Positions 29,716-64,000 are shown, counted from the first letter of the stretch. The stretch: 64,000 bases of DNA from a virus (UHGV-0209617); one strand, 5' to 3'. A program made the numbers and translations. Notes: generated by a model from the sequence alone, not told the origin.

Positions 29716-30202
29716 TTGGTGCGGGAAAGAATTTGTAAGAGATTCTTCCAAATTGAAAGGTAAAAAGCATCACTTTTGTTGCAGACAGTGTCTTGCCGAT
29801 TTTAGCAATAAGGCAAAGAATCCTAGTGGGTATGCCTCCTTGAAGGACTTTACAAATATCAGCAAAAATATGACACAGATTAATGAGCGTATGAATCCAA
29901 GCAGGATGATGAAGAAAACGAGAAAAAAACTGAGAGAGGCTCATCTTGGAAAAGGAGAATGCACTGGGTATTCAAAAATCTACAGTAGGCTTGCACATCG
30001 TGTAATTGCAGAGAAAATGTTAGGCAGACCACTTAAACCAGAGGAAGTAGTGCATCACAGGGATGGAAACAGGTATAACAATATTCCAGAAAACTTGGTC
30101 GTGTTCCCTTCGGTTAGTGAGCATTCAAGATTTCATAACGAGTTTAGATGGTTTCTGCGAGAGTTGGAGAGATTGGAGATGGAGAATGTTGAAACGAAGT
30201 GA
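29693..30202 (+). CDS. HNH endonuclease
   Basis: CxxC pairs and VVHHRDGNRYNNIPENL. Confidence 0.75.
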   Translation: MKLSIQCDWCGKEFVRDSSKLKGKKHHFCCRQCLADFSNKAKNPSGYASLKDFTNISKNMTQINERMNPSRMMKKTRKKLREAHLGKGECTGYSKIYSRLAHRVIAEKMLGRPLKPEEVVHHRDGNRYNNIPENLVVFPSVSEHSRFHNEFRWFLRELERLEMENVETK

Positions 30203-31568
30203 CCTGCATTATTATCAATCATATTGTGTGGAATACATTAAGCAAAATCACACTGCTGCAGTTTTATTGGATTGTGGATTAGGAAAAACTTCAATAACTT
30301 TGACGGCTCTTGCCGATTTGCTGTTTGACAGCTTCGAGATTCATAAGGTTTTGGTTATCGCACCTCTTCGAGTGGCTTCTGTAACATGGAGCGCGGAGAT
30401 TGAAAAATGGGAGCATTTGAAAATTCTAAAGTATTCCGTGGCAGTGGGTACCGAAGCAGAAAGGCTGGCGGCACTGAATGCACAGGCAGATATTTATATC
30501 ATAAACCGAGAAAACGTGCAGTGGCTGATTGAGAAAAGTGGTATTCCCTTTGATTTTGATATGCTTGTTGTCGATGAACTGTCAAGTTTCAAGAACCACC
30601 AGTCCAAGCGATTCAAGGCACTGATGAAGGTAAGACCAAAAGTAAAAAGAGCCGTGGGTCTGACAGGTACTCCTTTCAGCAACGGTTTAATGGATTTATT
30701 CGCAGAATTTAAACTGCTGGATATGGGAGCAAGGCTTGGCAGATTTATCGGTCAATACCGAAATGCCTACTTCTCCCCGGATAAGCGAAACGGTCAGATT
30801 ATTTACAGTTATAAGCCACTGCCGGATGCTGAACAGCAGATTTATGAGAAAATCTCCGATATTACGATTTCCATGAAATCCACGGACCATTTGAAAATGC
30901 CGGAGCTGATCAACACGCAGTATGAAGTGGTGCTTTCCAACAAGGAGCAGGAAAAGTACGAGGAGCTTAAAAAGGATCTGGTGCTGCAGCTTCCAAACGG
31001 AGAAATCACAGCCGCCAATGCTGCAAGTCTTACCGGAAAACTGTCACAGATGGCAAATGGTGCGGTGTATGGGGATGATGAGAAAGTTCTGGAGATACAC
31101 GAAAAGAAGCTGGATGCTTTGGAGGATATCATTGAAGCCGCAAATGGGAAACCGATACTGGTGGCATATTGGTTTAAGCACGATTTGGAACGCATCTGCA
31201 GACGGCTGGAGGAACTGAAGGTGGAGTATGCCAGAATATCTTCTCCCGGCAGTATCGAAATGTGGAACAGAGGTGAGTTTGCAGTAGGTCTTATCCATCC
31301 CGCATCAGCTGGTCACGGCTTGAATTTGCAGGCTGGAGGAAGTACACTGATATGGTATGGCTTAACCTGGAGCCTTGAACTTTACCAGCAGACCAATGCG
31401 AGGCTCTATCGCCAGGGACAGAAGGATACGGTGGTCATTCAGCACATCGTGGCTGAAGGCACCATTGATGAAAGAGTCCTTGCTGCTCTTGAAGCAAAGG
31501 ATAAAACACAGTCAGCACTCATGGATGCCGTGAAAGCTGAACTTGGAGGTGATGGCTGTGTCGGATAA
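30186..31568 (+). CDS. SNF2-family helicase
   Basis: LDCGLGKTS (motif I), VVDELSSF (motif II), QTNARLYRQGQ (motif VI). Confidence 0.85.
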   Translation: MLKRSDLHYYQSYCVEYIKQNHTAAVLLDCGLGKTSITLTALADLLFDSFEIHKVLVIAPLRVASVTWSAEIEKWEHLKILKYSVAVGTEAERLAALNAQADIYIINRENVQWLIEKSGIPFDFDMLVVDELSSFKNHQSKRFKALMKVRPKVKRAVGLTGTPFSNGLMDLFAEFKLLDMGARLGRFIGQYRNAYFSPDKRNGQIIYSYKPLPDAEQQIYEKISDITISMKSTDHLKMPELINTQYEVVLSNKEQEKYEELKKDLVLQLPNGEITAANAASLTGKLSQMANGAVYGDDEKVLEIHEKKLDALEDIIEAANGKPILVAYWFKHDLERICRRLEELKVEYARISSPGSIEMWNRGEFAVGLIHPASAGHGLNLQAGGSTLIWYGLTWSLELYQQTNARLYRQGQKDTVVIQHIVAEGTIDERVLAALEAKDKTQSALMDAVKAELGGDGCVG

Positions 31569-45511: not shown

Positions 45512-45990
45512 GTACTACTTTAGATAACATTACCCTTCCGCAGAATCCAGATGTAAGTGCGGCAGAGGTAGGCAAGGATTTTCTTTTGTATATAAATACT
45601 GGGACTGAGGCAGTTCCTGAGTGGCAGATGATTGGCGGTCAGCGAAACAGCGGTCTTACCCGTCAGGCTGAAACTATTGATGTGTCCCACAAGACCAGTG
45701 GTGGCTGGAGTGCTACCAAGGCAGGTCTTCGCTCCTGGAGCATCTCTCTTGATGGGCTGGTGCTTCTGCAGGACATCGGTGTCCGAGCAGTATCCCTTGC
45801 TTTTGAGGATGGCAAGGATGTTCATATCAAGCTGGAATATCCGGATAGCTCCTACCGAACCGGTTGGGCATCTGTGACAGAATTCAGCCTGGATAATCCG
45901 CATGATGGTGCGGCCACTATTTCTGGCACTTTATCTGGTAATGGTGCGCTTTCTGCACTTACAAAAGATAGTATTGGAGGTGGCATCTGA
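45508..45990 (+). CDS. Major tail protein
   Basis: 160 aa; position immediately before the chaperone pair. Confidence 0.65.
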   Translation: MSTTLDNITLPQNPDVSAAEVGKDFLLYINTGTEAVPEWQMIGGQRNSGLTRQAETIDVSHKTSGGWSATKAGLRSWSISLDGLVLLQDIGVRAVSLAFEDGKDVHIKLEYPDSSYRTGWASVTEFSLDNPHDGAATISGTLSGNGALSALTKDSIGGGI

Positions 45991-46328
45991 TGATTAAGTC
46001 AGTGACTGTAACAATAAATGGAAAGCCTCAGAGCATGGCTTTCAACATCAAGCGTCTGGCAAGGTTTGAGCAGTATATCGGTAAGAGTCTGTTTTTTGTA
46101 ATGAGTAGTGGCGGTATCCTAAAATCCATGGATATCAACTTTACCGTAGCTGGCATTGCAACCGCCCTGGATAAGGAAATGACTATGGAGGAGGCAGCTG
46201 ATCTGGTGCAGGCTCACTGCGATGGCGGCGGTCTTTTGGATGACCTTAATGATGGCATCTACAGAGCTATCATTGCATCCGGTCTATTCGTGAAGAATGA
46301 GGATTCAGCCAGCCAGGGAAACGACTGA
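45990..46328 (+). CDS. Tail assembly chaperone (short form)
   Basis: Position before the tape measure gene; overlapping -1 frame open to 46648. Confidence 0.7.
   Translation: MIKSVTVTINGKPQSMAFNIKRLARFEQYIGKSLFFVMSSGGILKSMDINFTVAGIATALDKEMTMEEAADLVQAHCDGGGLLDDLNDGIYRAIIASGLFVKNEDSASQGND
46316..46322 (+). promoter_or_regulatory. Slippery heptamer G_GGA_AAC for a programmed -1 frameshift producing the long chaperone form (45990-46648)
   Basis: X_XXY_YYZ heptamer in the 0 frame, 4 nt before the stop; the -1 frame is open from 46301 to 46648. Confidence 0.6.
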
Positions 46329-46871
46329 ACTCCTTTGCTGAGTGGGTAGAGTATGCCGAAGGTTATGCTTACGGCATACTCGCACTTAAGCCAAGGGAGC
46401 TTGATGAAATAACGCCTGGAGAGTTTTATAAGATGCTGAAGGGCTACGAGGAACGGCAGGAAGTACACAATACTACCACAGCCTATTTCGTGACTAATCT
46501 TATGAACCTCTTTGGTAAATCACTTAAATCCAGTATGACAGTAGAGAAGCTCATGAAGCCGCTTCTCGGAACAAAGAAGAAATCCCCATCAGACAGGAAA
46601 GCTGATGAGGAATATCTACGGACATTATTCAACTTGGCGAAGAAGTAATATCTTCTTTTGGTGGTGCAGGTTGTACGGTGGTTTTACGGATACCTTCGAC
46701 AACCTGTTCTTTAGCATCCATAAGGGCTTCGTTTAACCCTTCGAGAATGGCTTCTGCAGGTGCAGATATTTTTTAACCCATAATTCTCGGCCTCCTTTAT
46801 GGTAAGCACTGCTGATATAGATATTATGCTTGGTTAATTGTAGTAAGTCAACAAATTATGGAGGGATTAGT

Positions 46872-49800
46872 GTGTCGGTAATTTCAAATTTAATGGTTAA
46901 GATCGGTGCAGATTCCTCCGGTCTTAAAAAAGGGCTGGCAGAAGCCGGCAATCAGATAAAAACATCATTCAATACGGCGCCCGTTGAAGCATTCAGCACC
47001 CAGGTGGATGCTTCAAGGAAAACTGTCGAGGGTCTTATCGGAAAGATGAAAGGCTTTGCCGTTCTTGCTGCCGGCGGTTTTGGTATGACTGCCATGATTA
47101 AGGGCATTGCTGAAGCAGGAGATAACTCCTATCGCCTCGCACAGCGTATGCACATAACTGCAGCAGAGGCAGGTGCCTTATCCAGAATCATGAGCATAAC
47201 GGGCGGTGATGTAAACTCCCTCTCCGGTGCCATGATGCGTCTAGATAAATCCTTTTCGTCTGCATCCACGGATGGAGAGCAGACAAGGGCAATCCTTGAT
47301 GCGGTTGGAGTAAGCCTTACCAATCAGAAGGGACAGCTTCTTCCGATAAACGAACAGCTGAAGAACTTGGCGGCTGGATATAAGAAAGCAACGGATGCTG
47401 GCTACGGTCAGGAGTTTATCATGAACACCCTGGGCGTAAAGGGTATGGCTCTTGTATCTACCCTGGAGCAGTACAATGAGGCTGCTGAAGCTGCAGGAAA
47501 GGTAAAGACTGTAGGCCTTGACCCGAAGGCTATGCATGAGCTTAATATGCAGCTGAAGATCATGCAGATGGAAAGCGGTCAGATACAGAATGCCCTTGTG
47601 ATGGGATTTGCACCCGTGGTGCAGGAGTTTCTGCCAGGAATTATGACAGGGCTTCAGACAACGGCCTTATTCCTTCGTGAAAATAAGACTGAGATTGCTG
47701 CCCTTACCAAGGCGGCAGTTGAGTTCTACCTTACCATGAAGGCAATAAGCCTTGTTACTACAGCTGGTGCCAATGTACTGAATTTCTGGAAATCCATAAG
47801 CATGGCTGCCAAGGAAAGTGCGGTCGTTCAGGAAGCAGTATCAGCAGAACTTACAGCAAAGCAGATATCCCAGATAAACAAGGTGGTGGCAAAGTCCAAT
47901 CAGGGCTATGCCAAGATGCAGGTTGATGCAATTAAGGCCGCCCAGAAGCAAGGGATGGCTTCTGAAGAAGCAAGGGCTAAGCTTGAAAAAGACCTGCTTG
48001 CAATTCAACTTGAGGCAGAAAAGACTGCAGCCTTCATAACAAGAAGCTTTACGGCACACTTTATGGAGGTAAATGCAGCGGCTAATGCCATGGCTGCGGG
48101 AACTGCTGAATCCATGACTGCTATGGGGGCGGCTGGGGTTAAGGCAACTACTGCCCAGACCATGGCAACAGCAGAGCTTACGGCAGCTCATGCAGCAGAA
48201 GGAGCTGCGGCATTAAGGGCTGGCGAGAGCAATGTGGCTGCCAGTGCTATGGCAACAAAGGCCACTGTATCACAGACTGTTGCAACAGGTGAGCTTACCG
48301 TTGCTACGGTAGCGTCTGGAAATGCTGCAGCCGTGGCAGGAGCAAAGACAGTTTCCTTTACAGCAGGGGCATTGAAGGGAATCAAGGCACTGCAGGCAGG
48401 AGTTCTTGCTCTGACTGGCGGCTGGCTTGGCCTTGCAGCTGCCATTGCCTATGCCGGATACTGCCTTTATGAGTATCAGAGCGAGAAGATCGCAGAGGAA
48501 AAAGCACATACCTATACTGTTGATGGCCAGCAGTATGAAGAAAAGAATGGCTATTTCTATACCAAGGACAGGGTGAATCCTGATTGGGAGCCAAGCCCTT
48601 ATGATGAGTTTGATGATACTGCCATCATCAAGGGCGGTGAGCTGGTAACAGACAATGACCTCAATGAAAAGCTACAGGCAGCATGGTGGGAACGCCATAA
48701 GGATGACCCGGATTATAAGGCACATCTTGAGCAGGAGGCTGCCGAGACAAAGATGCGTGAGGCAGACAGCAAGCTGGCCGAACTAATGCAGAACCTTAAT
48801 GTAGGAACAGAAAGCGGCTCTAAGGCTCCAGTAAAGGAGCCTGTTACTTATGAGGTGGCTGTGCCAGTAGGTGAGGATGTTGTTGCGGCCGCTATGTATC
48901 ATGTTGGAGAGTCCTGGGGTGAAAATACCTGCTCCATCTTTGCGTCCAAGATGCTGGAAGAGGCAGGTATAACAGGACTATCAGATCCAAACGGGGATAA
49001 TATGGCAGCAAAAGCAGGAGCAGCCTATCACGATGTGAATGATGGTTACCAGCCGAAAGCTGGTGATGTCATTGAGTGGGGCGGTCATGTCGGTATTTAT
49101 GATGGAAATGGCGGATATATTGCATCCAACACAAAGACAGGAGTTCATCATGGCTCCATGGATGAAGCTGAAAGCTGGTTCGGACCGGTGCAGGGTTATA
49201 TCAGCACAGCAGAGTACACTGGGAACAAGACGGTGCTCAAGAACATGGATAGTGAAGCCAAGGCTGTGGAAGATGCCACCGCCAAGCTGAATAAGGCTAA
49301 AGAGGATGCCAAGAAATTATTCTCATCCATGGAATCCGAGATTCAGCGTGAGACAGGCACAGAATACAGCTATGGCATGAACCAGATTGAAGCCAATATC
49401 CGCAAAAAGCAGGTGGAAATTAATCAGCTGAAGGAGTCTGGGGTAGATACCGGTATGCTTGAAAAGGAGCTTCAGGACTATGAGACAGTGCTTAAATCCA
49501 AGATTATAGATAACTGGGAAAAAGCAAACGAGGAAATAAAGGGTTCTACCGCTGTAACCCTGGCAGAGGTAAAGAAAAACTACATCCAGGCAGCAGACGA
49601 AGAGTACAAGGTTACTCTTCAGAAGCTTGCCAGGGAGAGGGAGGAAAAGGAAAAAGAGCTGCTTCGGGATAAGGAGGATGCAGAAAGCCGCCTTGCTATA
49701 GATGAGTGGTATGCAGCTGAATCCTTGAAAGCTATGGAAACAAGGAATAAGAACATACGGGCAAGCTACAGCAAACTGATTTCAGATCTGGAAGAGACTG

Positions 49801-50579
49801 GTGATATAGATGCCCTGCAGGATTTTCTAGGTTCTAATGATGCGCAGGATATGATGTATCTTGAAGGACAGCAGAATCTTGCCAGAGCCTATGTGGATAT
49901 TTGGAAGGAAGCCCATAAAACCACCGAGGATATGGTGGCTGACCTTGCTGTAAGCGTCAACAGCTCAATGGCTGACAGCCTTAAAAGCTTCATTACTGGC
50001 TCAAAGACTGCAATGGATGTGGTGCATGACCTTGGCAGAACCATCATGAACACAATAGCTGAAATCGTAGCCAAGAAAGCTGCCACCCAGATTGTTACCT
50101 CCATGTTTGGAGGATTCTTCAAGGATGGCGGTGAGCTGCCAGGATTTGCTTCGGGAGGCTCTATTGCCGGCGGATATATCAGCGGTGCGGGGACGGGTAA
50201 AAGCGACAGCATAGTTGCGTATCTTGAGAGAAGCGGTCAGTTCGTAAGGCTCTCTGATGGAGAGTTCGTCATGACTGCCGAGGCTACAAGGAAGAACCGC
50301 CCAATGCTTGAAGCCATGAACGCAGGTGCCTATGCTAATGGTGGCTTCATAACAGCTCCGGGAGTAAGACCAGCCTATGCCGGTTCATATTCTGTTGGAA
50401 GCAATCAGCCGGCTGGTGGTGTCATAGTAAACATTACAAATAACTCCGACAGCAGGGTTGAAGCAAGACAGGCAGGATTTGACTCGCAGGCCCAGCGTTA
50501 TATTTTGGATATTGTGATAGACGGAGCACAGAGAAATGTAAACGGTTTTGGAAATAATCTTAAAGCAGTGATGGGGTGA
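46872..50579 (+). CDS. Tape measure protein with embedded CHAP/NlpC-P60-like peptidoglycan hydrolase domain (GTG start)
   Basis: 1236 aa, Ala/Gln-rich coiled-coil-like segments; ENTCSIFASKML...GDVIEWGGHVGIYDG Cys/His hydrolase-like block. Confidence 0.8.
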   Translation: MSVISNLMVKIGADSSGLKKGLAEAGNQIKTSFNTAPVEAFSTQVDASRKTVEGLIGKMKGFAVLAAGGFGMTAMIKGIAEAGDNSYRLAQRMHITAAEAGALSRIMSITGGDVNSLSGAMMRLDKSFSSASTDGEQTRAILDAVGVSLTNQKGQLLPINEQLKNLAAGYKKATDAGYGQEFIMNTLGVKGMALVSTLEQYNEAAEAAGKVKTVGLDPKAMHELNMQLKIMQMESGQIQNALVMGFAPVVQEFLPGIMTGLQTTALFLRENKTEIAALTKAAVEFYLTMKAISLVTTAGANVLNFWKSISMAAKESAVVQEAVSAELTAKQISQINKVVAKSNQGYAKMQVDAIKAAQKQGMASEEARAKLEKDLLAIQLEAEKTAAFITRSFTAHFMEVNAAANAMAAGTAESMTAMGAAGVKATTAQTMATAELTAAHAAEGAAALRAGESNVAASAMATKATVSQTVATGELTVATVASGNAAAVAGAKTVSFTAGALKGIKALQAGVLALTGGWLGLAAAIAYAGYCLYEYQSEKIAEEKAHTYTVDGQQYEEKNGYFYTKDRVNPDWEPSPYDEFDDTAIIKGGELVTDNDLNEKLQAAWWERHKDDPDYKAHLEQEAAETKMREADSKLAELMQNLNVGTESGSKAPVKEPVTYEVAVPVGEDVVAAAMYHVGESWGENTCSIFASKMLEEAGITGLSDPNGDNMAAKAGAAYHDVNDGYQPKAGDVIEWGGHVGIYDGNGGYIASNTKTGVHHGSMDEAESWFGPVQGYISTAEYTGNKTVLKNMDSEAKAVEDATAKLNKAKEDAKKLFSSMESEIQRETGTEYSYGMNQIEANIRKKQVEINQLKESGVDTGMLEKELQDYETVLKSKIIDNWEKANEEIKGSTAVTLAEVKKNYIQAADEEYKVTLQKLAREREEKEKELLRDKEDAESRLAIDEWYAAESLKAMETRNKNIRASYSKLISDLEETGDIDALQDFLGSNDAQDMMYLEGQQNLARAYVDIWKEAHKTTEDMVADLAVSVNSSMADSLKSFITGSKTAMDVVHDLGRTIMNTIAEIVAKKAATQIVTSMFGGFFKDGGELPGFASGGSIAGGYISGAGTGKSDSIVAYLERSGQFVRLSDGEFVMTAEATRKNRPMLEAMNAGAYANGGFITAPGVRPAYAGSYSVGSNQPAGGVIVNITNNSDSRVEARQAGFDSQAQRYILDIVIDGAQRNVNGFGNNLKAVMG

Positions 50580-50583
50580 TTGT

Positions 50584-50943
50584 ATGCTTGTTTTTCCGGA
50601 TATTGAACCTAATATATCCTCTGCCAATGGCTGCGGAGACAGCTATAAGATGTCTATAAAAGACAGTACCGTTTCAACGGTGACAGATGGAAACTATAAA
50701 ATGACCAGACCACGCACGACCAGGATGCTGGCTGCGTGGTCTTTTTCCTGGGTGGCCTTATCTGAGGATGAGTTCAGGAAAATAGAGGACTTCTTCCGAA
50801 AGGTGGGTACCTTCCAGAAGTTCCTCTTTAATAATCCCATGGATGGCAAGGAATACACTGTGAGATTTTCCGAGCCACTTACAGATTGGCAGTATGTTCA
50901 TCCCTATGGCTGGCAGGGAAAGCTCAGTTTTGAGGAGGTGTAA
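50584..50943 (+). CDS. Minor tail protein (lambda gpM-like position)
   Basis: Position and size after the tape measure gene. Confidence 0.5.
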   Translation: MLVFPDIEPNISSANGCGDSYKMSIKDSTVSTVTDGNYKMTRPRTTRMLAAWSFSWVALSEDEFRKIEDFFRKVGTFQKFLFNNPMDGKEYTVRFSEPLTDWQYVHPYGWQGKLSFEEV

Positions 50944-50946: not shown

Positions 50947-51531
50947 ATGCAGGTATGGTCACAGGCGGCAACCCTTGAAAAGAACAGCCTATCTTCGGAT
51001 ACACCGTTTCTTCTTCTGGTTGAGGTCATATCCAAGGAGATGTCAGAGCCGATATATCTGGTCAGAAATACAGAGAATATCGTATGGCGTGGAAAGGAAT
51101 GGACGGCCTTTCCCATAGAGGTGGAATCATCCTCCGAGGATGGAAAGACAATACCGTACATAAACATCAAGGTCAGCAACTGCGGAGGCATGATAGGTGC
51201 CTACCTTCAAAGGTATAACGGCCTTGTGGATTCCGAGATAAGGATTTATGTGGTACTTGCTAGCAATCTGCGATCTGAGTCAGCTGAGTTTGAGCTGGAC
51301 TTTCTTATAACCGAGGCAAAGTACACCGAGGACTGGATAACCTTTGTCCTGGGGGCAAGTGCAGAGCTGGTATCAAGATTTCCCACATTCCGCTATAACA
51401 AGAATTTCTGTCCTTTTATCTGCGGAGATGTGCGGTGCGGCTATGTGGGAAATGAAAGCTGTGTTAATACCCTGGATTCATGTAAGATTCCAGGAAGATT
51501 TGGCGGGGAGCCAGGGATGGTGAGTGCATGA
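50947..51531 (+). CDS. Minor tail protein L-like, with C-terminal cysteine cluster
   Basis: C-terminal FCPFICGDVRCGYVGNESC...C cluster, as in gpL-type tail tip proteins. Confidence 0.6.
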   Translation: MQVWSQAATLEKNSLSSDTPFLLLVEVISKEMSEPIYLVRNTENIVWRGKEWTAFPIEVESSSEDGKTIPYINIKVSNCGGMIGAYLQRYNGLVDSEIRIYVVLASNLRSESAEFELDFLITEAKYTEDWITFVLGASAELVSRFPTFRYNKNFCPFICGDVRCGYVGNESCVNTLDSCKIPGRFGGEPGMVSA

Positions 51532-51911
51532 TGTACAGTGATTTGATTGGTGTGCCATTTGAAGATGGCGGCAGGAACAAAAATGGTATGGACTGCTGGG
51601 GTCTTGTGATGGAGTGCTTTTTCCGTAAGGGAATAGTTCTGCCGGAATATGGTATATCTGCAGAGGAGCTTCTAAGAATTTCAGACAAAATGGCATCTGA
51701 AGAATCCAAATGGGAAAAGCTCACTGAACCGACAGACGGATGCCTTGTGCTTATCCGCACTGCTGAAGGTGCATGGGCAAACCATGTGGGAATCTATATC
51801 GGGGATGGCAGGTTCATCCATGCATATCCCGCAGCAGGGGTATGCATTTCTAAAATCTCTCGCTGGAAGAGTCACATTGTAGGTTTTTATTATCCGAAGG
51901 AGGGCGGCTGA
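51528..51911 (+). CDS. NlpC/P60-family tail-associated peptidase (gpK-like)
   Basis: DCWGLVMECF...H...GDGRFIHA Cys/His pattern. Confidence 0.7.
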   Translation: MMYSDLIGVPFEDGGRNKNGMDCWGLVMECFFRKGIVLPEYGISAEELLRISDKMASEESKWEKLTEPTDGCLVLIRTAEGAWANHVGIYIGDGRFIHAYPAAGVCISKISRWKSHIVGFYYPKEGG

Positions 51912-54900
51912 TGGTAAAGGTCATAATAATTGAAAATCCATTCGAGCCGCATATCCATGATGCATATGAGGTTCTATATACCGGTAAATCCTTGGAAAGC
52001 TACACATCCCTTGAAAGCAGGGATGTGTTCATCAACGGTCATAAGGCTGAAGATATAGCTATTCCAGCAGACGAGGACTGTATCATTTCCATTCCACACA
52101 TAGCAGGAGGCGGTGTAGGAAAGATTCTAGGCTTTGTGGCTATGGTAGCACTTACTGTGGTTACAGGTGGTATTGCTGCTAATGGTCTTACTGGCTTTCT
52201 TGGGCTTACCGTAAAGGGAGCGACCCTTGCCAGCTGTCTTATCTCAGGCGCTGTGATGTATCTGGGCGGCAGGCTCATAAATGCAGTGTTTCCGCAGGGG
52301 GCAGCTACCCAAAGTATTGGAGGATACAGCGAAGGACAGAAGACTCAGACCTATGGCTGGGATCTTCCGACAGTAGCAACAAGAGAAGGCGGCATCATAG
52401 GAGAAACCTATGGCACCTGCATTCCACAGCCCCAGCTCTTGGAGGAGCACGTTGAAACAATCGGTGGAAAGCAGTACCTTAATCTTCTATATTGCGGCGG
52501 TTATGGTGAAGTGGACAACATAACGGATATGCGGATTGATTCTACTCCCATTGACTGCTTTTCAAATGTACAGATAGAAAAGAGGTTTGGCACCAATGAC
52601 CAGAAGCCAATCTCCTTCTTTGACGATACTCCGACCGACCAGGGCGTGAGCCTTCTATTAGACCTCAATAAGCCAATCATCCGTACCACGGATTCCATCA
52701 AGGCATCAGCTCTTGAGGTAACTTTGGAGTGGCCTAATGGACTATACCATCTGAACAATGATGGCAACTATGAAAGTGCCAGCATCGTATGCAGGATAGA
52801 TTACAGGCTTCGCGGGGATGAAGCATGGATTTACCATAATTCCTATACGGTCAGCAACTCATCAGCGGATGCCTTCAGGCGTTCCTTCAAGTGGAAGGTA
52901 TCAAAGGCAGGGCAGTATGATGTAAAGCTGGTGCTTACAACAAAGCCATCTGGCTCAAGGTATATGACCTACACCAGCTGGTCTATCCTGACCTCATATA
53001 ATTCTGGCATTTACAGCAGGCCCAATAAGGTGCTTATTGGCCTTCGCATCCTGGCAACGAATCAGCTGTCGGGCGGAGTTCCTAACCTTACCTGGAAACA
53101 GACACGAAGCAGGGTGTATGTCTATAATCCGCATCTTAAATGCTATGAGATTAAGCCTGCCGACAATCCAATCTGGGCGGCATATGATATCCTTCATGGC
53201 TGCAGGTATCTGAAGAATATCAACACAGGAAGCTTTGAGTATGTGGTGGACGGATGTGCTCATGAGAGACTTGATGCCTATTACGATGAGTGGCTAAGTG
53301 CAGCAGCTTATGCTGATGAAGAAATAGTAAACCATGATGGCGAAAAGGAAAGACGCTTCAAGTTTGATGCGTTCTATGATACCGCCCAGAAACGCTATGA
53401 TGCAGCAGTCAAGGCTGCGGCAGTAGGACACAGTAACATAATAATCCATGGCTGTAACTACGGCATCACAGTGGATAGGCCGGGTATCATAACCCAGGTG
53501 TTCAGCGAAGGGAGAACCACAAAATCCTCTGTGATAGGCTCATTCTTAAGCAGGAGCGAAAGAGCCAGGTCTGTAGAGATTACCTATAATGATGAAAACA
53601 ATGACTACAAGAATACTCAGTTCACCCTGAGAAGTGCCTTGTATGACAGGGATATGGAGCAGGATAATACCGCTCAGCTTACTCTCTTTGGTGTGAGCCG
53701 AAGAAGCCAGGCATACCGTGAGGGTATCATGGCCCTGGCTGCATCAGAAAGACAGCTACAGACAATCGAGCTATCTACGGACATAAATGGCATTACGGCA
53801 GAATACGGGGATATCGTTGGTTACTCACACAGTATCAGCAGAATTGGCATCGCATCCGGCAGGATCGTAAGTGCCACTAAAAACACAGTGAAGCTGGATA
53901 AGAGCGTAACCATGGATGAGGGCAGAACCTATGAAATCTATCTTCAGACACGGAAGGATGAGCTTATACATAGGCTGGTCAAGACCGAGGAGGGCACAAC
54001 TGACCTTCTTACTGTGATGCTGCCGTTTGACACTGCTGTATCTGAATACGACTGCTATTCCTTTGGTGAGGCTGAAAGGGCAGTAAAGCCTTTCCGCATT
54101 GTGGGAGCAGAGCGTGACGGAGATTTTCTGGTGAAGCTGAAGCTCATAGAATATGACGAGGCAGTCTATGCTACCGAAATGGACTATAGTAAATATCCAA
54201 GGATTGACTACACATCATCCGATAGCTTTACCACAGATAACATAACCCTTACGGAAGATACCTATGTGCAAAAAGACGGTACTGTGGTATCTGCTATAGA
54301 TATCGAGTGGGAAAGCCAGTCGGTGTATCAGTCCTCCTTGGATGGCTACAGCGTTGAGATAACGGATATGGAGACTGATACCACAGAGGAGTTCATCGTA
54401 AGCGGTCTGTCTTACAGATACTCTGGGGTAAAGGCAGGAAATACCTATAAGGTAAGGGTGCGGCCTGTGGTTCATGGCAACCGCATCAACGGAAGGTCAG
54501 CATCCATAACCATCACGGGAAAGGTTACGCCACCAGGGGATGTGGCTTATATGTCACTTGTAGAGGTGGATGGCAAAATCCTCGTAACAATCCAGCAGGT
54601 GGCAGAGCCGGATATTGACCACTATGAGCTTAGGCTTGGCAGCAGCTGGGATAATTCCTTTAAGGTATGTGATTTTTCAGGAAGTCCTGTAACTGTCCAG
54701 CCAAGTATGAACGGCACCTGCACATACTTTGTAAAGGCAGTGGATACCTCTGGTAATAAGTCGGAAAATGCCTGCAGGCAGATCATAAACATCAGCAGCA
54801 TCACGGCAAACAATGTAATCCTTGAAAGAAACTTTGATATTCATGACTTTGCTGACTGGGACAATTTTTATGAGCATAGGGGAGCTTTGCTGATGGCAAG

Positions 54901-55603
54901 CAGAGAAAGAATCACTGACTTTGAGTATTTCTGGGAAATCTTCGACCAGCTTACCTATCTTGATGGTTCGGTGTATCTTCCGCTTATTGATTTAGGGGAA
55001 AACATCATAGATACTGACTGCTACTACATAGACAGCAAGGGAATCATCCATCAGCAGAATCTACGGCGCATAAGGGATTTTAAGTATTTTTCCGAGCTAT
55101 TCGAGAAGGATGACCGCCTTGCGGCTCCCGTATCCCTGGACAGTACATTCTTAAGGATTGCCATTGATGGTGATAACAGCAGTGATGTACTGAAGGCAGT
55201 GGAGTATCGGACAAGCATTGATGGATATACCTTCAGCAATTGGATAGCCGCATCCCAGACAGCCTTCAAGGGAAGGTTCGTGCAGATAAGGATTAATCTC
55301 AGCAGCATATCCGGTCATACCCAAGGATACATTAAATCAGTATGTGTCAGCATAGATGTGCCAGATACGGAGGTAATCCTTGAAAATGTACTCCTTAATG
55401 CGGGAGATAACTACATTCGGTATAATCACCGCTTCATGGAAAAGCCATCCTCGGTTGCCGTTTTTACGGCAGATGATAACGGCATGGCTGCAACATGGCA
55501 GATTACGGATTATGACAGGGATGGAGTACACCTTACCATATTCAATGCAAAAGGTGAAAGCTGTAGTGGTAAATTAATAAGAGCCATGGTTCGTGGCTAC
55601 TAA
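51911..55603 (+). CDS. Host-specificity (gpJ-like) tail tip protein
   Basis: 1230 aa immediately after the gpK-like gene. Confidence 0.7.
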   Translation: MVKVIIIENPFEPHIHDAYEVLYTGKSLESYTSLESRDVFINGHKAEDIAIPADEDCIISIPHIAGGGVGKILGFVAMVALTVVTGGIAANGLTGFLGLTVKGATLASCLISGAVMYLGGRLINAVFPQGAATQSIGGYSEGQKTQTYGWDLPTVATREGGIIGETYGTCIPQPQLLEEHVETIGGKQYLNLLYCGGYGEVDNITDMRIDSTPIDCFSNVQIEKRFGTNDQKPISFFDDTPTDQGVSLLLDLNKPIIRTTDSIKASALEVTLEWPNGLYHLNNDGNYESASIVCRIDYRLRGDEAWIYHNSYTVSNSSADAFRRSFKWKVSKAGQYDVKLVLTTKPSGSRYMTYTSWSILTSYNSGIYSRPNKVLIGLRILATNQLSGGVPNLTWKQTRSRVYVYNPHLKCYEIKPADNPIWAAYDILHGCRYLKNINTGSFEYVVDGCAHERLDAYYDEWLSAAAYADEEIVNHDGEKERRFKFDAFYDTAQKRYDAAVKAAAVGHSNIIIHGCNYGITVDRPGIITQVFSEGRTTKSSVIGSFLSRSERARSVEITYNDENNDYKNTQFTLRSALYDRDMEQDNTAQLTLFGVSRRSQAYREGIMALAASERQLQTIELSTDINGITAEYGDIVGYSHSISRIGIASGRIVSATKNTVKLDKSVTMDEGRTYEIYLQTRKDELIHRLVKTEEGTTDLLTVMLPFDTAVSEYDCYSFGEAERAVKPFRIVGAERDGDFLVKLKLIEYDEAVYATEMDYSKYPRIDYTSSDSFTTDNITLTEDTYVQKDGTVVSAIDIEWESQSVYQSSLDGYSVEITDMETDTTEEFIVSGLSYRYSGVKAGNTYKVRVRPVVHGNRINGRSASITITGKVTPPGDVAYMSLVEVDGKILVTIQQVAEPDIDHYELRLGSSWDNSFKVCDFSGSPVTVQPSMNGTCTYFVKAVDTSGNKSENACRQIINISSITANNVILERNFDIHDFADWDNFYEHRGALLMASRERITDFEYFWEIFDQLTYLDGSVYLPLIDLGENIIDTDCYYIDSKGIIHQQNLRRIRDFKYFSELFEKDDRLAAPVSLDSTFLRIAIDGDNSSDVLKAVEYRTSIDGYTFSNWIAASQTAFKGRFVQIRINLSSISGHTQGYIKSVCVSIDVPDTEVILENVLLNAGDNYIRYNHRFMEKPSSVAVFTADDNGMAATWQITDYDRDGVHLTIFNAKGESCSGKLIRAMVRGY

Positions 55604-58357: not shown

Positions 58358-58725
58358 TGGATGAGAGGGATGTAGTCATGCTTTACATCCAGGTTGGTGG
58401 TGCGTTACTTGTCAGTGCCATCACAGGCGTAATGGGTGCTCTGGTACGTGAGGTATGGGCGCTTAGAAAGGAACGACAGGAAAAAGCCATAGAGGAAGAA
58501 GCTGAACGGGGAAAACGCAGAAAGGCATTAAAGGCACTCTTGAAGTTTCAGCTTCATCGCTCCTGGCAGTATCACACCAGCAATGGCTTCATGCCAGCCA
58601 ACGAGATGAGCCTTCAGACAGAGCTGTATGAGGCTTATCACGATATGGGAGGTAACGGCACCGGGACAAAGCTCTATAACGAGATGATGGAGCTGCCACA
58701 TATCAAGCACACGGAGGTAAAGTAA
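58357..58725 (+). CDS. Membrane protein, holin-like (one N-terminal TM segment plus charged coiled region)
   Basis: VMLYIQVGGALLVSAITGVMGALV hydrophobic segment; GGAGG SD; in the lysis cassette. Confidence 0.5.
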   Translation: MDERDVVMLYIQVGGALLVSAITGVMGALVREVWALRKERQEKAIEEEAERGKRRKALKALLKFQLHRSWQYHTSNGFMPANEMSLQTELYEAYHDMGGNGTGTKLYNEMMELPHIKHTEVK

Positions 58726-59030
58726 TGAAGAACTTAATAGTACAGTTTTCTGCATGGGCGCAGGCCAACTGGCTTGCGCTTGTTATTTTTATGATTTTTT
58801 CCATGATGGCATTCCTGTGCATGGTCATGGGAAGCTGGCTTTATGGCTACTGGTCAAATGCTCTCTGCGGCACGAAGTTTGAACTTGGTAGCTGCTGGCA
58901 GGGAATCACTGTTGTTATCACGGGCCTTGGCGGTGTTGCAGCACTGGCCAAGGCTGCATGGACCAAGTATTCAACGGACAGCCAGTATAACAGCATGATG
59001 GGGAGTCATCCATACGAAAGGGGTAAGTGA
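58725..59030 (+). CDS. Holin (two predicted TM segments)
   Basis: Two hydrophobic stretches; immediately upstream of the endolysin. Confidence 0.6.
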   Translation: MKNLIVQFSAWAQANWLALVIFMIFSMMAFLCMVMGSWLYGYWSNALCGTKFELGSCWQGITVVITGLGGVAALAKAAWTKYSTDSQYNSMMGSHPYERGK

Positions 59031-59602
59031 TTATGATTAAGGGTATTGATGTATCGGAGAACAACGGCACTGTAGATTGGCAGGCAGTAAAGAATGCCGG
59101 GATTGAGTTTGCTATTGTAAGAAGCTCCTATGGTAAGACGGGAGTGGATGAGAAGTTCCTGGAAAATGTAAATGGTGCTCATGCAGTGGGGCTGAAGGTT
59201 GGTGCTTACCATTATGGCTATGGCCTGACTCCGGCTGATGCAGTGCTTGAAGCAAGGAACTGCCGTGAGGTAATTGATGAGGCAGGAGTGCTTCTGGAGC
59301 TTCCTGTTTTCTATGACATGGAAGATGCTGATGGCTATAAAGAAAGACACGGATTTTGGTTTGACCCAGAGAATGCCACAGGTATCTGCAGGGCATTCCT
59401 GGATAACATTGGCCTGAACTGTGGTGTATACGCATCATACAGCTGGCTTTGTGATTTGATTGACTGGCGCAGTCTCGGCTGCTCAGTCTGGAACGCAGAA
59501 TGGGGAGGTAGCGATGATATTGAAGGATATATGTGGCAGTTTACGGAAAAGCTTTATATCTCTGGTAAGCAGTTTGATGGAAACTATCTCTACAACTGGT
59601 AA
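59027..59602 (+). CDS. GH25-family lysozyme endolysin (muramidase)
   Basis: IKGIDVSENNGTVDWQAVKNAGIEFAIVR ... GAYHY pattern typical of GH25. Confidence 0.8.
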   Translation: MIMIKGIDVSENNGTVDWQAVKNAGIEFAIVRSSYGKTGVDEKFLENVNGAHAVGLKVGAYHYGYGLTPADAVLEARNCREVIDEAGVLLELPVFYDMEDADGYKERHGFWFDPENATGICRAFLDNIGLNCGVYASYSWLCDLIDWRSLGCSVWNAEWGGSDDIEGYMWQFTEKLYISGKQFDGNYLYNW

Positions 59603-59616
59603 GGCGGTGATGGGGC

Positions 59617-60036
59617 ATGAGAAAATCATTCTGGTTTGTGCTGCTGTTATTGCTCTTGTGTGTGCCGCAGCTTTCCTTTGCTGCAGAGAGGACATACCAA
59701 GTGACGGAGACAGAGCTGACGAGGTTAGAACAGAACTTGACGGAGCTATCCGAAATGAACAGCAAGCAATCAATGAACTTAGAACAGCAGAAGATACAGC
59801 TTCAGAACTCGGATTTGCAGTTGAAGCAGGCCGAAGAGAAGTACAGTCTGCTATCCAGTCAAATGAAGAACTTGGAGAAGGAAATGCTAGAGCAGCAGGA
59901 CTCATTAGAGAATGCCAGGAAATCCTTCGAACAGTTCGCCAAAGAGGAACAATTGAAGAGAGATAAGCTGAAGCGTGAAAAGAATATAGGATACTGGCTT
60001 GCAGGGATACTAGCTGTAGTATGTATTGCCAGATAA
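59617..60036 (+). CDS. Signal peptide + coiled-coil + C-terminal membrane anchor protein (unknown function)
   Basis: MRKSFWFVLLLLLLCVPQLSFAAE signal-like N-terminus; heptad-like Q/E/K/L-rich middle; hydrophobic C-terminus IGYWLAGILAVVCIAR. Confidence 0.6.
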   Translation: MRKSFWFVLLLLLLCVPQLSFAAERTYQVTETELTRLEQNLTELSEMNSKQSMNLEQQKIQLQNSDLQLKQAEEKYSLLSSQMKNLEKEMLEQQDSLENARKSFEQFAKEEQLKRDKLKREKNIGYWLAGILAVVCIAR

Positions 60037-60203: not shown

Positions 60204-60228
60204 ATAAGCACGGTTGGAGGTGATTGCC

Positions 60229-60810
60229 ATGAATGACATTGAAAAGCTTGTTGATGAGTCAGGAATGATTACAACTAGAGATATAGTGAAAAATAATCAG
60301 TCAAAAGTAGAATTTTACAATTACCTGAGAAAAAATGATTTTGAACAAGTATCGCGTGGTATATATGCTTCTAAGGATGCGTGGGTAGACCCATTATTGA
60401 TTGCGCATATGAGATGTCCTAAAGCGGTGATCTCTCATGATGTGGCACTTCATTATTATGGCTTGGTTGATAGAGAGCCTTCAGCTCCAACGCTTACTAT
60501 TTATTCTGGATACAACACAAGCAGGTTAAAAGAAGCAGGGTACAAGGTGTTTTTCGTGAAGAAGGAATACCTTGATGCTGGCAAAGAAGAGGTTGTAAAT
60601 TTTGATGGCAACATCATTCCTATGTATAACCTTGAAAGAACGATGTGTGACCTTGTCAGAAACAGAAGCAGCTTTGAGATTCAAGATTTCAATGCAGCTA
60701 TAAAAGCGTATGCCAGAAAAAAGGAAAAGAATCTTACAAGGCTATTTGAATATGCGAAAATGCTTAGGGTGGAAAAATTGATGCGGTCATATATGGAGGT
60801 GCTTTTGTAA
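60229..60810 (+). CDS. abiEi: AbiEi-family antitoxin / transcriptional regulator
   Basis: N-terminal DNA-binding-like region ending ...VSRGIYA; paired with a DUF1814-type nucleotidyltransferase; GGAGGTGA SD. Confidence 0.75.
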   Translation: MNDIEKLVDESGMITTRDIVKNNQSKVEFYNYLRKNDFEQVSRGIYASKDAWVDPLLIAHMRCPKAVISHDVALHYYGLVDREPSAPTLTIYSGYNTSRLKEAGYKVFFVKKEYLDAGKEEVVNFDGNIIPMYNLERTMCDLVRNRSSFEIQDFNAAIKAYARKKEKNLTRLFEYAKMLRVEKLMRSYMEVLL

Positions 60811-61664
60811 TGATCTTATCAGCTGCACAGGCAAGAGGCAGGATTAAGAATATTGTGGCAAAAAATGGTGCGGACCCAAGACTGCTTATGAGAATTTATA
60901 TGATGGAGAGATTTTTGGAACGAGTATCCCTTTCTGCATACAAGGATAATTTCATCATTAAGGGCGGAATGCTTATAACATCATTGGTTGGTATTTCCAT
61001 GCGGTCAACTATGGATATTGACACAACTGTAAAAGGCCAGGATGTAAGCATGGAAAATGCACAGCGTATTGTTAAAGAAATTGCTGACATTCAGATTGAT
61101 GATGGGGTTTCTTTTGTGATTAAAGATGTAGAAAACATAATGGATGAGATGGAATATCCAGGAATCAAATTTCACTTGGAAGTGTTATTAGACAAAATGG
61201 TTACGCCAATAAAGATTGATGTTTCTACGGGCGATGCAATTACACCCAGAGCGATTGAATATAATTACAAGCTTATGCTTGAAGATAGAGAAATCGGGCT
61301 GTGGAGCTATAATCTGGAAACAATCCTTGGGGAAAAATTACAGACGATACTTGTACGTGAACGTGCAAACACCAGAATGAGAGATTTCTATGATATATGT
61401 GTATTGGTAGAAATGTATGACAGTAAGATAAATACTGTCAATTTCAAAGCAGCATATGAGGCGACCTGTAGAAAAAGAGGGTCATTACACTTATTTGGTA
61501 ATGAAGGAAAAATACTGGATATAATAGCTGGTGAAAGTAAAATGATTGATAGATGGACAAATTATCAGAAGAAGTTTTCTTATGCATCTGATATCAGTTT
61601 TGAGAAAGCTATTCAGTGTGCAAAGGGGTTAATTTCATTCTTGAAAAATAGTACCGGAAAATAA
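60810..61664 (+). CDS. abiEii: AbiEii-family nucleotidyltransferase toxin (DUF1814-type)
   Basis: 284 aa directly coupled to the AbiEi gene; typical gene pair. Confidence 0.75.
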   Translation: MILSAAQARGRIKNIVAKNGADPRLLMRIYMMERFLERVSLSAYKDNFIIKGGMLITSLVGISMRSTMDIDTTVKGQDVSMENAQRIVKEIADIQIDDGVSFVIKDVENIMDEMEYPGIKFHLEVLLDKMVTPIKIDVSTGDAITPRAIEYNYKLMLEDREIGLWSYNLETILGEKLQTILVRERANTRMRDFYDICVLVEMYDSKINTVNFKAAYEATCRKRGSLHLFGNEGKILDIIAGESKMIDRWTNYQKKFSYASDISFEKAIQCAKGLISFLKNSTGK

Positions 61665-61892: not shown

Positions 61893-62270
61893 ATGACAGA
61901 AGTAGAGAAGAAAAGAATAAAGGAGCTTCATTATCAGGGGCTGGGATATCGGAAGATTGCTGCCGAACTTGGCATGTCCCCTAATACTGTGAAATATGTA
62001 ACCAAGAATCTGGTAGCTACGGATAATCATACCTGCAGGAACTGCGGCATCAAAGTTTTACAGACAGCAGGACGCAAGGAGAAGAAGTTCTGTTCAGATA
62101 AATGCCGTATGGATTGGTGGAACAGCCATCTCGATACTGTTAATCGCAAGGGATATAAGACCTTTACCTGTAAATGCTGCAGTAAGGAATTCATGGCTTA
62201 TGCCAGGACAGGCAGGAAATACTGCAGCCGGGAATGTTATTTCAAGGCTAGATATGGAGGTGCAAGATGA
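61893..62270 (+). CDS. HTH protein with C-terminal zinc-ribbon motifs (Tn916 orf7-like position)
   Basis: LHYQGLGYRKIAAELGMSPNTVKY HTH followed by several CxxC pairs. Confidence 0.6.
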   Translation: MTEVEKKRIKELHYQGLGYRKIAAELGMSPNTVKYVTKNLVATDNHTCRNCGIKVLQTAGRKEKKFCSDKCRMDWWNSHLDTVNRKGYKTFTCKCCSKEFMAYARTGRKYCSRECYFKARYGGAR

Positions 62271-62458
62271 GTACGCCGTTGAATGAAAAGTACACACTTA
62301 GTATAAAGGAATCCGCCAAGTATTTCGGTATTGGCATGAAAAGGCTGCGGCGGCTTGCAGAAGAACATATGGACACCTTTGCTATCCGCTGTGGCAACAA
62401 GTATCTCATCATCCGCACTGAGTTTGAAGCCTTTCTGAAGGATTCAGAAGAAATATAG
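62267..62458 (+). CDS. xis: Excisionase-family DNA-binding protein (Tn916 Xis-like)
   Basis: EKYTLSIKESAKYFGIGMKRLRRLAEEH resembles the Tn916 Xis N-terminus. Confidence 0.7.
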   Translation: MSTPLNEKYTLSIKESAKYFGIGMKRLRRLAEEHMDTFAIRCGNKYLIIRTEFEAFLKDSEEI

Positions 62459-62526
62459 CTTATATGCCAAATAGTAGTTGAATAATATCGCAAACAGAGT
62501 GATATATAGTGTCGGAGGTGATGAGC

Positions 62527-62751
62527 ATGCAGAAATCAGATCTTGGGGAACGGGAATACCTTAGCAAGAAGTATACTGCCGTCTTCTTCGGACTCAGTCC
62601 CAGGCGGCTTGAGCGATTCCTCAAAGCAGATGACTATGATTTTGTTGTGTATTATAAGAAAAGAACACTGATATTAAGGGAGGCCTTCAACAGATATCTC
62701 TGGAGGAATCCTGATGTAAGGGAGATGTTGAAACGTGGCAAGACGAGGTGA
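62527..62751 (+). CDS. Second excisionase-like HTH protein
   Basis: YLSKKYTAVFFGLSPRRLERFLK; start chosen at the ATG 8 nt after GGAGG. Confidence 0.55.
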   Translation: MQKSDLGEREYLSKKYTAVFFGLSPRRLERFLKADDYDFVVYYKKRTLILREAFNRYLWRNPDVREMLKRGKTR

Positions 62752-64000
62752 AGTAAGAAGGGATTCAAGGAACAGGCTGTTAAGGATAGGTGAATCCCAG
62801 CGTAAAGATGGCAAGTACATGTTCAAATACCATGTGGATGGCAGACCGTATTTCGTCACCAGCTGGAGACTGCTGCCTTCAGATAGGCAGCCAAAAGGTA
62901 CAAAGCCTACCCTTTCACTGAGGGAATTGGAAAAGAAGGTAGGAAGGGAAATCGACCTGCAGATGAGCCTTGAACTCAGGAACTGCACGGTTAAGGATTT
63001 GGTTGAGCGGTATTTGGCTACCAGGATTAATGCAAAGCCGAATACCAAGATGGGGTATAATACTGTAAAGAATGTACTGGAAAGTGAGCCCTTTTATCAT
63101 AGGAAGATAAAAACAATCAAGGTATCTGATGCAAAGATATTCCTCATCAAGTTGCAGGAAAATGGCAGGAAGGCCAGCACGGTGAAATGCATCAGAGGGG
63201 TTCTCCGCCCGGCTTTTCAGATGGCTGTAGATGATGATATGCTGGTCAAGAATCCTTTTGCTTTCGAGCTGGCAGGTGTCCTGGTAAATGACTCAGTCAC
63301 AAGGGAGGCTGTCAGCAGGAGGGAAATGAAAAAGTTCTTGCAGTTTGTCAGGAACGATGATTGCTACTGCAAATACTATGAGGCAGTACATATACTGTTC
63401 CATACGGGAATGCGAATATCTGAATTCTGCGGTCTGACGATAAATGACCTTGATATGGAGAACAGAATCATAGATATAAACCATCAGCTGGTGCGTGTGG
63501 GAATGAAGCTGATAATACAGACCACAAAGACCAACGCAGGCACCAGAAGGATTCCGATGTCTGAGGATGTATATGAAATGTTCAAGAGCATATTGGCTAA
63601 CAGGCCAACAGGCATAGATGAGAAAGCCGTTGATGGGTATAAGGGGTTCCTCTACCTTGATAATGCCGGACTGCCACTTGTGGCAATGCACTGGTCAAAC
63701 AGGTTCAGGCATATGGTCGGGCGCTACAATGACATTTACAAAGAACAGATGCCTAAAATCACTCCTCACGTCTGCCGCCATACCTACTGCAGCAACATGG
63801 CAAAATCGGGAATGCATCCAAAGATCCTGCAGTACCTTATGGGGCATTCGGACATTGGTGTGACGCTCAATACATATACCCACTTAGGGCTTGAGGACGC
63901 CCAGGGCGAGATGGACAGACTGAAGGATGCCCAACAGGAGATTGACAAGGGCAAGGTAAGGGAACTGCCACCAACCAAGGCTCAATTCAAAGTAGTATAA
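62735..64000 (+). CDS. int: Tyrosine site-specific integrase (Tn916 Int-like), GTG start, stop codon at the window end
   Basis: N-terminal RRDSRNRLLRIGESQRKDGKYMFKY resembles the Tn916 Int arm-binding domain; C-terminal ...HVCRHTYCSNMAKSG...LMGHSDIGVTLNTYTH carries the recombinase R...H-x-x-R...Y region. Confidence 0.85.
   Translation: MARRGEVRRDSRNRLLRIGESQRKDGKYMFKYHVDGRPYFVTSWRLLPSDRQPKGTKPTLSLRELEKKVGREIDLQMSLELRNCTVKDLVERYLATRINAKPNTKMGYNTVKNVLESEPFYHRKIKTIKVSDAKIFLIKLQENGRKASTVKCIRGVLRPAFQMAVDDDMLVKNPFAFELAGVLVNDSVTREAVSRREMKKFLQFVRNDDCYCKYYEAVHILFHTGMRISEFCGLTINDLDMENRIIDINHQLVRVGMKLIIQTTKTNAGTRRIPMSEDVYEMFKSILANRPTGIDEKAVDGYKGFLYLDNAGLPLVAMHWSNRFRHMVGRYNDIYKEQMPKITPHVCRHTYCSNMAKSGMHPKILQYLMGHSDIGVTLNTYTHLGLEDAQGEMDRLKDAQQEIDKGKVRELPPTKAQFKVV

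Follow-up and report, generated by a model that had tools for sequence, protein, structure and literature searches.

Cell wall hydrolases embedded in tail tape measure proteins (TMPs) are already documented, namely in phages T5, TM4 and phiCbK and as GH23 domains in enterococcal phages. In the T5 protein pb2 a muralytic metallopeptidase comes after a hydrophobic stretch, and on receptor binding it is released into the periplasm (PMC10038345). Its hydrophobic segments enter the membrane and the enzyme digests the periplasmic peptidoglycan, perhaps after refolding (PMC10038345). The TMP gp95 of Caulobacter phage phiCbK has a CHAP endopeptidase domain, which its authors called 'not unusual' (PMC3556154). 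Motif 3 of the mycobacteriophage TM4 TMP hydrolyses peptidoglycan and is non-essential, but aids the infection of stationary-phase cells (PMC1796659). Enterococcal phage TMPs have C-terminal SLT/GH23 domains, and a survey found lytic transglycosylases as the sole lysin type in TMPs (PMC10194240). Outside TMPs, the 150-amino acid (aa) protein g14 of RcGTA is able to degrade peptidoglycan and its deletion results in tail-less heads (PMC7296036). Here we describe the TMP gene found in UHGV-0209617, a stretch of 64,000 nucleotides (nt) that was analysed at its full length and is called the window below. Based on its sequence, we consider it likely that the TMP of this lambda-like siphovirus prophage bears a catalytically competent NlpC/P60 cysteine peptidase as an inserted cassette.

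The TMP gene and its parts are listed below by position in the window. Residue numbers count from the GTG start (1235 aa); in the longer, 1249-aa open reading frame (ORF) they are higher by 14.

46872 to 50579, plus strand: TMP gene, 1235 aa from a GTG start, identified by its ORF, its ribosome-binding site, PHROG TMP families and Pfam Tape_meas_lam_C
48387 to 48467, plus strand: Gly/Ala-rich hydrophobic segment ALQAGVLALTGGWLGLAAAIAYAGYCL, residues 506-532, a candidate membrane-inserting stretch
48840 to 49277, plus strand: embedded domain of NlpC/P60 fold, residues ~660-800 (146 aa modelled; Pfam core match at nt 48921-49166)
48930 to 48932, plus strand: candidate catalytic Cys687 (Cys701 in ORF numbering), invariant, first residue of a model helix
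49086 to 49088, plus strand: candidate catalytic His739 (His753 in ORF numbering), invariant, first residue of a model strand
49128 to 49130, plus strand: candidate third active-site residue Asn753, two residues past the canonical position (+14 from the His)
49902 to 50096, plus strand: lambda-type TMP C-terminal domain, Pfam PF09718 (Tape_meas_lam_C), 25.1 bits, cut-off 23

The initial annotation of the window, which was made from the sequence alone, had suggested a hydrolase-like domain with a Cys...His pattern in the middle of the TMP and had proposed a domain search of that region. Both motifs quoted there are present: ENTCSIFASKML is found at nt 48921-48956, with its Cys at 48930-48932, and GDVIEWGGHVGIYDG at nt 49062-49106, with its His at 49086-49088. 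Pfam NLPC_P60 (PF00877; MEROPS C40) matched the excised 141-aa domain with 26.9 bits (E 4.9e-6), above the cut-off of 23. A family alignment of 45 domain sequences has four invariant columns, with the Cys and the His among them. NLPC_P60 matched 39 of these 45 sequences, and CHAP also matched 23 of them. When the alignment was used as a profile against solved structures in PDB, the matches were CwlO (1e-10), 8er5 (1e-9), Spr/MepS (~4e-8) and the diffocin hub hydrolase (3e-6), together with SagA-type endopeptidases within the range of 1e-10 to 1e-6.

AlphaFold modelled the domain from this alignment with a predicted local distance difference test score (pLDDT) of 96.7 and a predicted TM-score (pTM) of 0.89, as compared to a pLDDT of 38 from the single sequence without an alignment. 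The model has the alpha+beta fold of papain-like enzymes. In a Foldseek search against PDB the top matches of the domain were all NlpC/P60 domains, RipD being among the matches, and the best matches among predicted viral structures were 'NlpC/P60 family' proteins and a 1082-aa 'Tail tape measure'. Identity to the cellular NlpC/P60 endopeptidases was 19-26%. Judged from the Pfam, profile and model results together, residues ~660-800 are a genuine NlpC/P60 papain-like domain, with a likeness far beyond chance, and the hydrolase-like domain of the initial annotation is thereby borne out. That annotation had left the choice between CHAP and NlpC/P60 open, and a member of the 90% identity cluster of the TMP is publicly labelled 'CHAP domain protein [Caudoviricetes sp.]'. 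The domain did not fit CHAP (PF05257; MEROPS C51), and NlpC/P60 is favoured over the label of this relative.

Cys687 was found in all 67 family sequences. In the AlphaFold model it starts helix 31-41, and in the alignment it matches the Cys that CwlO and 8er5 have in their conserved DCS motif, the site of the catalytic Cys in NlpC/P60 enzymes. His739, equally invariant (67/67), opens strand 83-87 of the model and lies within an HVGIY motif common to Spr, CwlO and the gpK-like protein encoded further downstream, where it aligns with the His of these proteins. A Cys at the start of a helix and a His at the start of a strand, as seen in the model, is the arrangement of papain-like enzymes. The invariance of both residues down to 26-30% sequence identity argues for catalysis.

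Relatives of the domain were sought among 1.84 billion cluster representatives in an exhaustive HMMER search (E below 1e-3), from which the alignment was also built, as a word-indexed search with the domain had given 3 short fragments. In total 74 representatives were found. No ordinary cellular NlpC/P60 protein was significant in this search, and the subfamily is therefore small and divergent. The proteins were 800-2000 aa long in 45 of the 74 representatives, and in 33 of the 74 the TMP scaffold outside the domain was also common to them. The usual position of the domain is at 52-66% of the protein length. The same divergent domain was also seen at residues 403-505 of a 5083-aa protein (P0012), the remainder of which seems, by eye, to have methyltransferase-like and helicase-like regions, and in four further representatives of 2700-2900 aa. 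The domain is thus not limited to TMPs.

Within TMPs, the domain was conserved more strongly than its flanks in all three relatives that were compared, the second and third of which come from metagenome-assembled genomes (MAGs):

Pectinatus cerevisiiphilus: domain 84% identity, N-terminal part 68%, C-terminal part 64%
Veillonellaceae MAG: domain 82% identity, N-terminal part 69%, C-terminal part 63%
Anaerovibrio MAG: domain 58% identity, N-terminal part 52%, C-terminal part 40%

A different enzyme was found in a prophage of Pectinatus haikarae. Its TMP (L009:6001-9837) aligns with ours from end to end, with 33% identity over 1-1234, and at its residues 734-833 Pfam finds an SLT lytic transglycosylase with 75 bits. 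The SLT domain sits ~150 residues past the same hydrophobic segment, which is the slot that NlpC/P60 takes in the window. By these comparisons the hydrolase is an exchangeable cassette in one TMP scaffold, its slot being filled with NlpC/P60, with SLT or with no hydrolase, the last case being weighed below. A slot with room for either a stem-peptide peptidase or a glycan-strand lyase, and which may also be empty, speaks for an accessory function in opening the peptidoglycan.

As for the gene itself, the ORF listing gave 46830-50579 on the plus strand, with a TTG start and 1249 aa. A GGAGGG ribosome-binding site lies 7 nt 5' of the GTG at 46872, and public gene calls hold exactly the 1235-aa product that starts there, so the TMP coordinates of the initial annotation are correct. 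The protein had also been described as Ala/Gln-rich. It is rich in Ala (14.7% overall and 37% in residues 401-500) but not in Gln (4.2%), and it has 3 Cys in its whole length. Five PHROG families (339, 12798, 25241, 2276 and 2335) matched, all of them named 'tail length tape measure protein', and the gene lies where a TMP gene is expected, between the G/GT frameshift chaperone and the tail-tip genes. Along the protein, the hydrophobic segment is followed by a linker of ~140 residues, the NlpC/P60 domain and ~445 residues that end in the lambda-type C-terminal domain. Residues 506-532 reach a Kyte-Doolittle maximum of 1.59 (19-residue window) and are kept as a hydrophobic segment in the Pectinatus and Succiniclasticum homologues. 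A tblastn search of the TMP against 50,697 deposited phage genomes found no close relative among isolated phages; the sole match was a weak, N-terminal one with 22% identity in Thermoanaerobacterium phage THSA-485A.

The other genes of the tail module are as follows:

45990 to 46648, plus strand: G/GT pair of tail assembly chaperones; the -1 slippery heptamer GGGAAAC (46316-46322) is of the lambda type
50584 to 50943, plus strand: gpM-like minor tail protein (weak match to Pfam Phage_min_tail, 19.7 bits; PHROG matches; position kept in related loci)
50947 to 51531, plus strand: gpL-like minor tail protein (Pfam Phage_tail_L, 40.8 bits)
51528 to 51911, plus strand: stand-alone NlpC/P60 protein in the gpK slot, 127 aa (Pfam NLPC_P60, 64.9 bits, E 7.5e-18; PHROG 329, minor tail protein)
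51911 to 55603, plus strand: gpJ-like central tail fibre / tip attachment protein (Pfam FNIII-A_GpJ, 74.2 bits, and Phage-tail_3; PHROG 31, central tail fiber J, 9.6e-129)

The heptamer lies in phase, directly ahead of the G stop codon, and the -1 frame has no stop between 46301 and 46648. At the N terminus of the gpJ-like protein (window 51911-52300) we observed a Gly-rich hydrophobic stretch, GGGVGKILGFVAMVALTVVTGGIAANGLTGFLGL, which recalls lambda gpI fused to gpJ; Pfam Lambda_tail_I gave no match.

The separate NlpC/P60 gene that the initial annotation had placed at 51528-51911 in the tip module is confirmed by its Pfam match, and the protein is also publicly named 'NlpC/P60 family'. It has the canonical triad, read from the sequence as Cys23, His86 and His98. 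It scored 33.3 bits against the NCBIfam model phage_NlpC_fam (TIGR02219), under the cut-off of 81.9 bits, and no JAB/MPN family was found in the 127 aa by Pfam at E up to 0.1. The gene was present in 8 of the 8 related loci that cover the slot, including two in which the TMP is without a peptidase domain, and the order gpM-gpL-NlpC/P60-gpJ was kept across these 8 loci. As the gene is there whatever the TMP cassette, it is a core gene of the tip module and not an added lysin that would signal a harder wall. The protein is the gpK/g14-type tip component, probably with a role in assembly and possibly with a second one in cutting the wall. A recent duplication of the gpK-like gene into the TMP was considered as the origin of the embedded domain and was ruled out, the two sharing 19% identity with an hhalign probability of 88.7%.

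To find the host it was necessary to go beyond the window, which holds mobile DNA only: a defence island, the prophage, an AbiEi/AbiEii pair and a Tn916-type integrase. Beyond the integrase, a 119-kb metagenome scaffold runs into host genes, and the one for pyruvate carboxylase subunit B, adjacent to the prophage, encodes exactly a protein listed by NCBI under Anaerovibrio lipolyticus / Veillonellaceae MAG. Anaerovibrio belongs to the Selenomonadaceae in the Negativicutes, which have an outer membrane with lipopolysaccharide (LPS) (PMC5007114, PMC5491611). Relatives of the TMP in the genome collection came from Pectinatus, Anaerovibrio, Selenomonas, Succiniclasticum and Veillonellaceae; this search was queried with the whole TMP, and its list of hosts reflects the scaffold and not the domain. 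The closest genome match, a MAG labelled 'Lachnospiraceae' (L002), was not used as host evidence, as its 20.5-kb contig is too short for the label to be trusted. On the evidence of the flanking host gene and the TMP relatives, the prophage host is an Anaerovibrio-like bacterium of gut or rumen, within the Negativicutes.

The phage genes also show traits of the diderm type, with a lambda-like gpM/L/K/J tip, a single-domain GH25 endolysin and a unimolecular-spanin-like gene. In the lysis region, window 58725-59602 holds a holin-like membrane protein of 101 aa and then the GH25 endolysin, in which no second domain was found by Pfam (191-aa ORF; 189 aa in public calls). Directly after the endolysin, at 59617-60036, a 139-aa protein is encoded whose N terminus is signal- or lipobox-like (LLLLLLC), with a coiled coil in the middle and a transmembrane helix at the C terminus. 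Judged from these predicted segments, the protein has a unimolecular-spanin-like architecture, which fits a host with an outer membrane. This architecture is of the type of phage T1 gp11. An ORF at 59460-59966 overlaps this gene and encodes an N-terminal transmembrane segment and a coiled coil in an i-spanin-like way; it may or may not be real.

We propose a mechanism that is mostly drawn by analogy with T5 pb2. It starts from the fold, the invariant Cys and His, the stronger conservation of the domain over its flanks, the SLT that replaces NlpC/P60 in the same slot and the lineage of the host, all of which were observed. The gpJ-like tip would bind an outer-membrane receptor and the tip would open. 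The TMP would then leave the tail's lumen and presumably be expelled into the periplasm, where the hydrophobic segment 506-532 would insert in a membrane and help to form a conduit for the DNA. The peptidase domain, probably once refolded, would cut the stem peptides of the peptidoglycan locally. The likeliest bond would be the one between gamma-D-Glu and the diamino acid, as in the closest structural relatives. The conduit and the DNA would then be able to cross the wall, from which infection may benefit.

Several points weigh against a catalytically competent wall peptidase in this TMP. On the whole protein, Pfam NLPC_P60 scored 22.7 bits, just under the cut-off of 23. Spr, 8er5 and the gpK-like protein complete their triad with a second His, which follows the catalytic one by 12 residues. 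The polar residue that NlpC/P60 enzymes have at +12 was not found in the TMP domain, where three independent alignments (with Spr, 8er5 and the gpK-like protein) place Ala751 in the canonical third position, and across 67 sequences this column holds Ala in 41, Ser in 18 and Gly in 6. Two residues further on, the column of Asn753 is polar in 64 of the 67 sequences (Asn 44, Gln 12, Asp 8). Asn753 may stand in for the canonical residue, as side chains two positions apart in a predicted beta-strand would face the same way. The enzymatic activity of the family is itself a prediction. Several copies of a folded domain of ~15 kDa may not fit into the tail's lumen, and both storage and refolding are assumptions of the proposal. 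The domain lies mid-protein, ~445 residues from the C-terminus, unlike the cleaved enzyme at the C-terminus of T5 pb2, and this bears on the topology after ejection. Finally, a TMP homologue in Succiniclasticum ruminis (L011:6001-8913, 970 aa) is without the central region and without a hydrolase domain, which means that the activity is dispensable for this type of tail.

The Ala in the canonical third position, the marginal Pfam score of the whole protein and the presence of RipD among the structural matches would also fit a domain that is weakened or dead and serves for peptidoglycan binding or as a structural plug, in the manner of RipD, an NlpC/P60 protein without catalysis. However, RipD-type proteins have lost the Cys, whereas here neither the Cys nor the His varies in any of the 67 relatives, even at 26-30% identity, which would be unexpected without catalysis, and an Asn, Gln or Asp is conserved two residues past the canonical site. 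Loss of activity is to us quite unlikely. A living peptidase could still have another substrate than the host wall. NlpC/P60 domains are papain-like peptidases, TMPs are commonly processed, with T5 pb2 being cut after R1127 (PMC10038345), and RcGTA without its gpK/g14-type NlpC/P60 protein forms no tailed particles (PMC7296036). The domain could thus be a maturation protease that cleaves the TMP or other tail proteins during assembly, comparable to the processing of lambda gpH to gpH* and of T5 pb2. Against this stands the SLT in the same slot of the homologous scaffold: it cleaves glycan strands and is unable to process proteins, and a protein-processing role would not account for its presence there. 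The homologue without any domain further indicates that tail assembly does not need it, and the closest structural matches are all peptidoglycan endopeptidases. We regard a maturation protease as similarly improbable.

If peptidoglycan is the substrate, it may be asked what the enzyme tells about the wall. The initial annotation had taken two wall-degrading activities in the injection apparatus to suggest a thick peptidoglycan barrier, which would be of the Gram-positive type. Both NlpC/P60 domains are real, and phages of Gram-positive hosts often have lysins in their tails (PMC10194240). However, the conclusion does not follow for a Negativicutes host with an LPS outer membrane, such as the Anaerovibrio-like bacterium found here (PMC5007114). 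Lysis genes and tip genes alike are of the diderm type, the gene in the gpK slot belongs to the conserved core of the tip whichever cassette the TMP has, and T5, phiCbK and RcGTA, all of thin-walled Gram-negative hosts, hold similar enzymes (PMC10038345, PMC3556154, PMC7296036). We find the thick wall scarcely credible and this part of the annotation is abandoned. A more specific form of the wall peptidase that we propose would be a subfamily adapted to the polyamine-modified stem peptide of Negativicutes. The D-Glu of this peptide bears cadaverine or putrescine, which is bound by the SLH domain of OmpM (PMC10628300), and a cut at the modified D-Glu would also free the OmpM tether of the outer membrane at the entry site. 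The subfamily is rare and divergent (74 representatives among 1.84 billion), its third residue is arranged differently, and every genome match with a reliable host was in the Negativicutes. This support is purely circumstantial, as the genome search was done with whole-TMP peptides and the host range is that of the scaffold and not of the domain, and the SLT that can take the same slot would not act on the polyamine site. We consider such an adaptation unlikely; if it were true, the TMP would both open the wall and locally sever the tether between OmpM and peptidoglycan during DNA entry.

Other parts of the window were also annotated. Left of the prophage, at 12643-18321, lies the defence island of low GC (0.37-0.38), with N6 methyltransferases, an AAA_5 (McrB-like) protein and a LlaJI-type restriction enzyme, and the region 1-12000 (GC 0.31-0.39) holds mostly ORFs without a Pfam match, together with a DUF6273/Sel1 protein. 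The replication module of the prophage, at 21088-31568, encodes a DUF2800 protein (PD-(D/E)XK nuclease), an Enc34-type single-stranded DNA-binding protein, a family A DNA polymerase, a VapE-like primase/helicase and an SNF2 helicase. The prophage also carries terminase and portal genes. In its right arm, between the lysis genes and the integrase, a pair of AbiEi antitoxin and AbiEii nucleotidyltransferase toxin (60214-61664) is probably cargo that the prophage carries for abortive infection or defence. The right end of the prophage, at 61893-64000, consists of a helix-turn-helix protein and the Tn916-type integrase (Integrase_DNA + Phage_integrase); in the scaffold copy, gene calling placed a Tn916-type Xis between the two (L014:9533-9724). 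Past the integrase, the longer scaffold has host genes for LMWPc, DUF896, pyruvate carboxylase subunit B, aminotransferase, UvrD and CorA.

The TMP described here adds a well-supported embedded wall hydrolase from a phage of the Negativicutes, a group whose phages are little studied. It reveals no new principle, but it sets right the notion that a thick wall can be inferred from several lysins in a tail. One scaffold with NlpC/P60, SLT or no domain is also a natural comparison set for the contribution of such domains to infection, and the domain could supply a peptidoglycan endopeptidase active on the walls of Selenomonadaceae or Veillonellaceae.

In comparison with known systems, the gpK-slot gene resembles those of lambda gpK and RcGTA g14, as it lies between gpL-like and gpJ-like genes and encodes an NlpC/P60 protein with a Cys-His-His triad. 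Lambda gpK also has an N-terminal MPN/JAB domain, whereas none was detected in the 127-aa protein of the window, which is nearer to g14 in size. The embedded domain shares its fold and its Cys/His pair with CwlO, LytE, SagA and Spr/MepS, which gave the best profile and structural matches. These are secreted enzymes, in contrast to a domain embedded in a virion protein, and the embedded domain differs from them by the Ala at the third position. TM4 is alike in having a small hydrolase motif in the TMP, and its dispensable yet helpful role matches the patchy distribution of the cassette; the TM4 motif itself is unrelated (Rv0320/Rv1728c-like) and acts on a mycobacterial envelope. The TMPs with SLT/GH23 domains follow the same concept, with the P. 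haikarae prophage TMP even having the same scaffold and slot, but they cleave the glycan strand and not the peptide stem. Like phiCbK gp95, the TMP studied here belongs to a phage of a Gram-negative host and has an embedded papain-like cysteine peptidase (CHAP / NlpC-P60 clan). With T5 pb2 it shares the siphovirus TMP, the diderm host and a hydrophobic segment that precedes a peptidase for peptidoglycan. In T5 this enzyme is a C-terminal zinc metallopeptidase that is cleaved off as pb2C, whereas here an NlpC/P60 cysteine peptidase, which is not known to be cut off, lies mid-protein with ~445 residues after it. Less ordinary traits of the TMP studied here are that its domain belongs to a rare and divergent subfamily, that the third residue is displaced, that the cassette can be exchanged and that the host is a diderm Firmicute.

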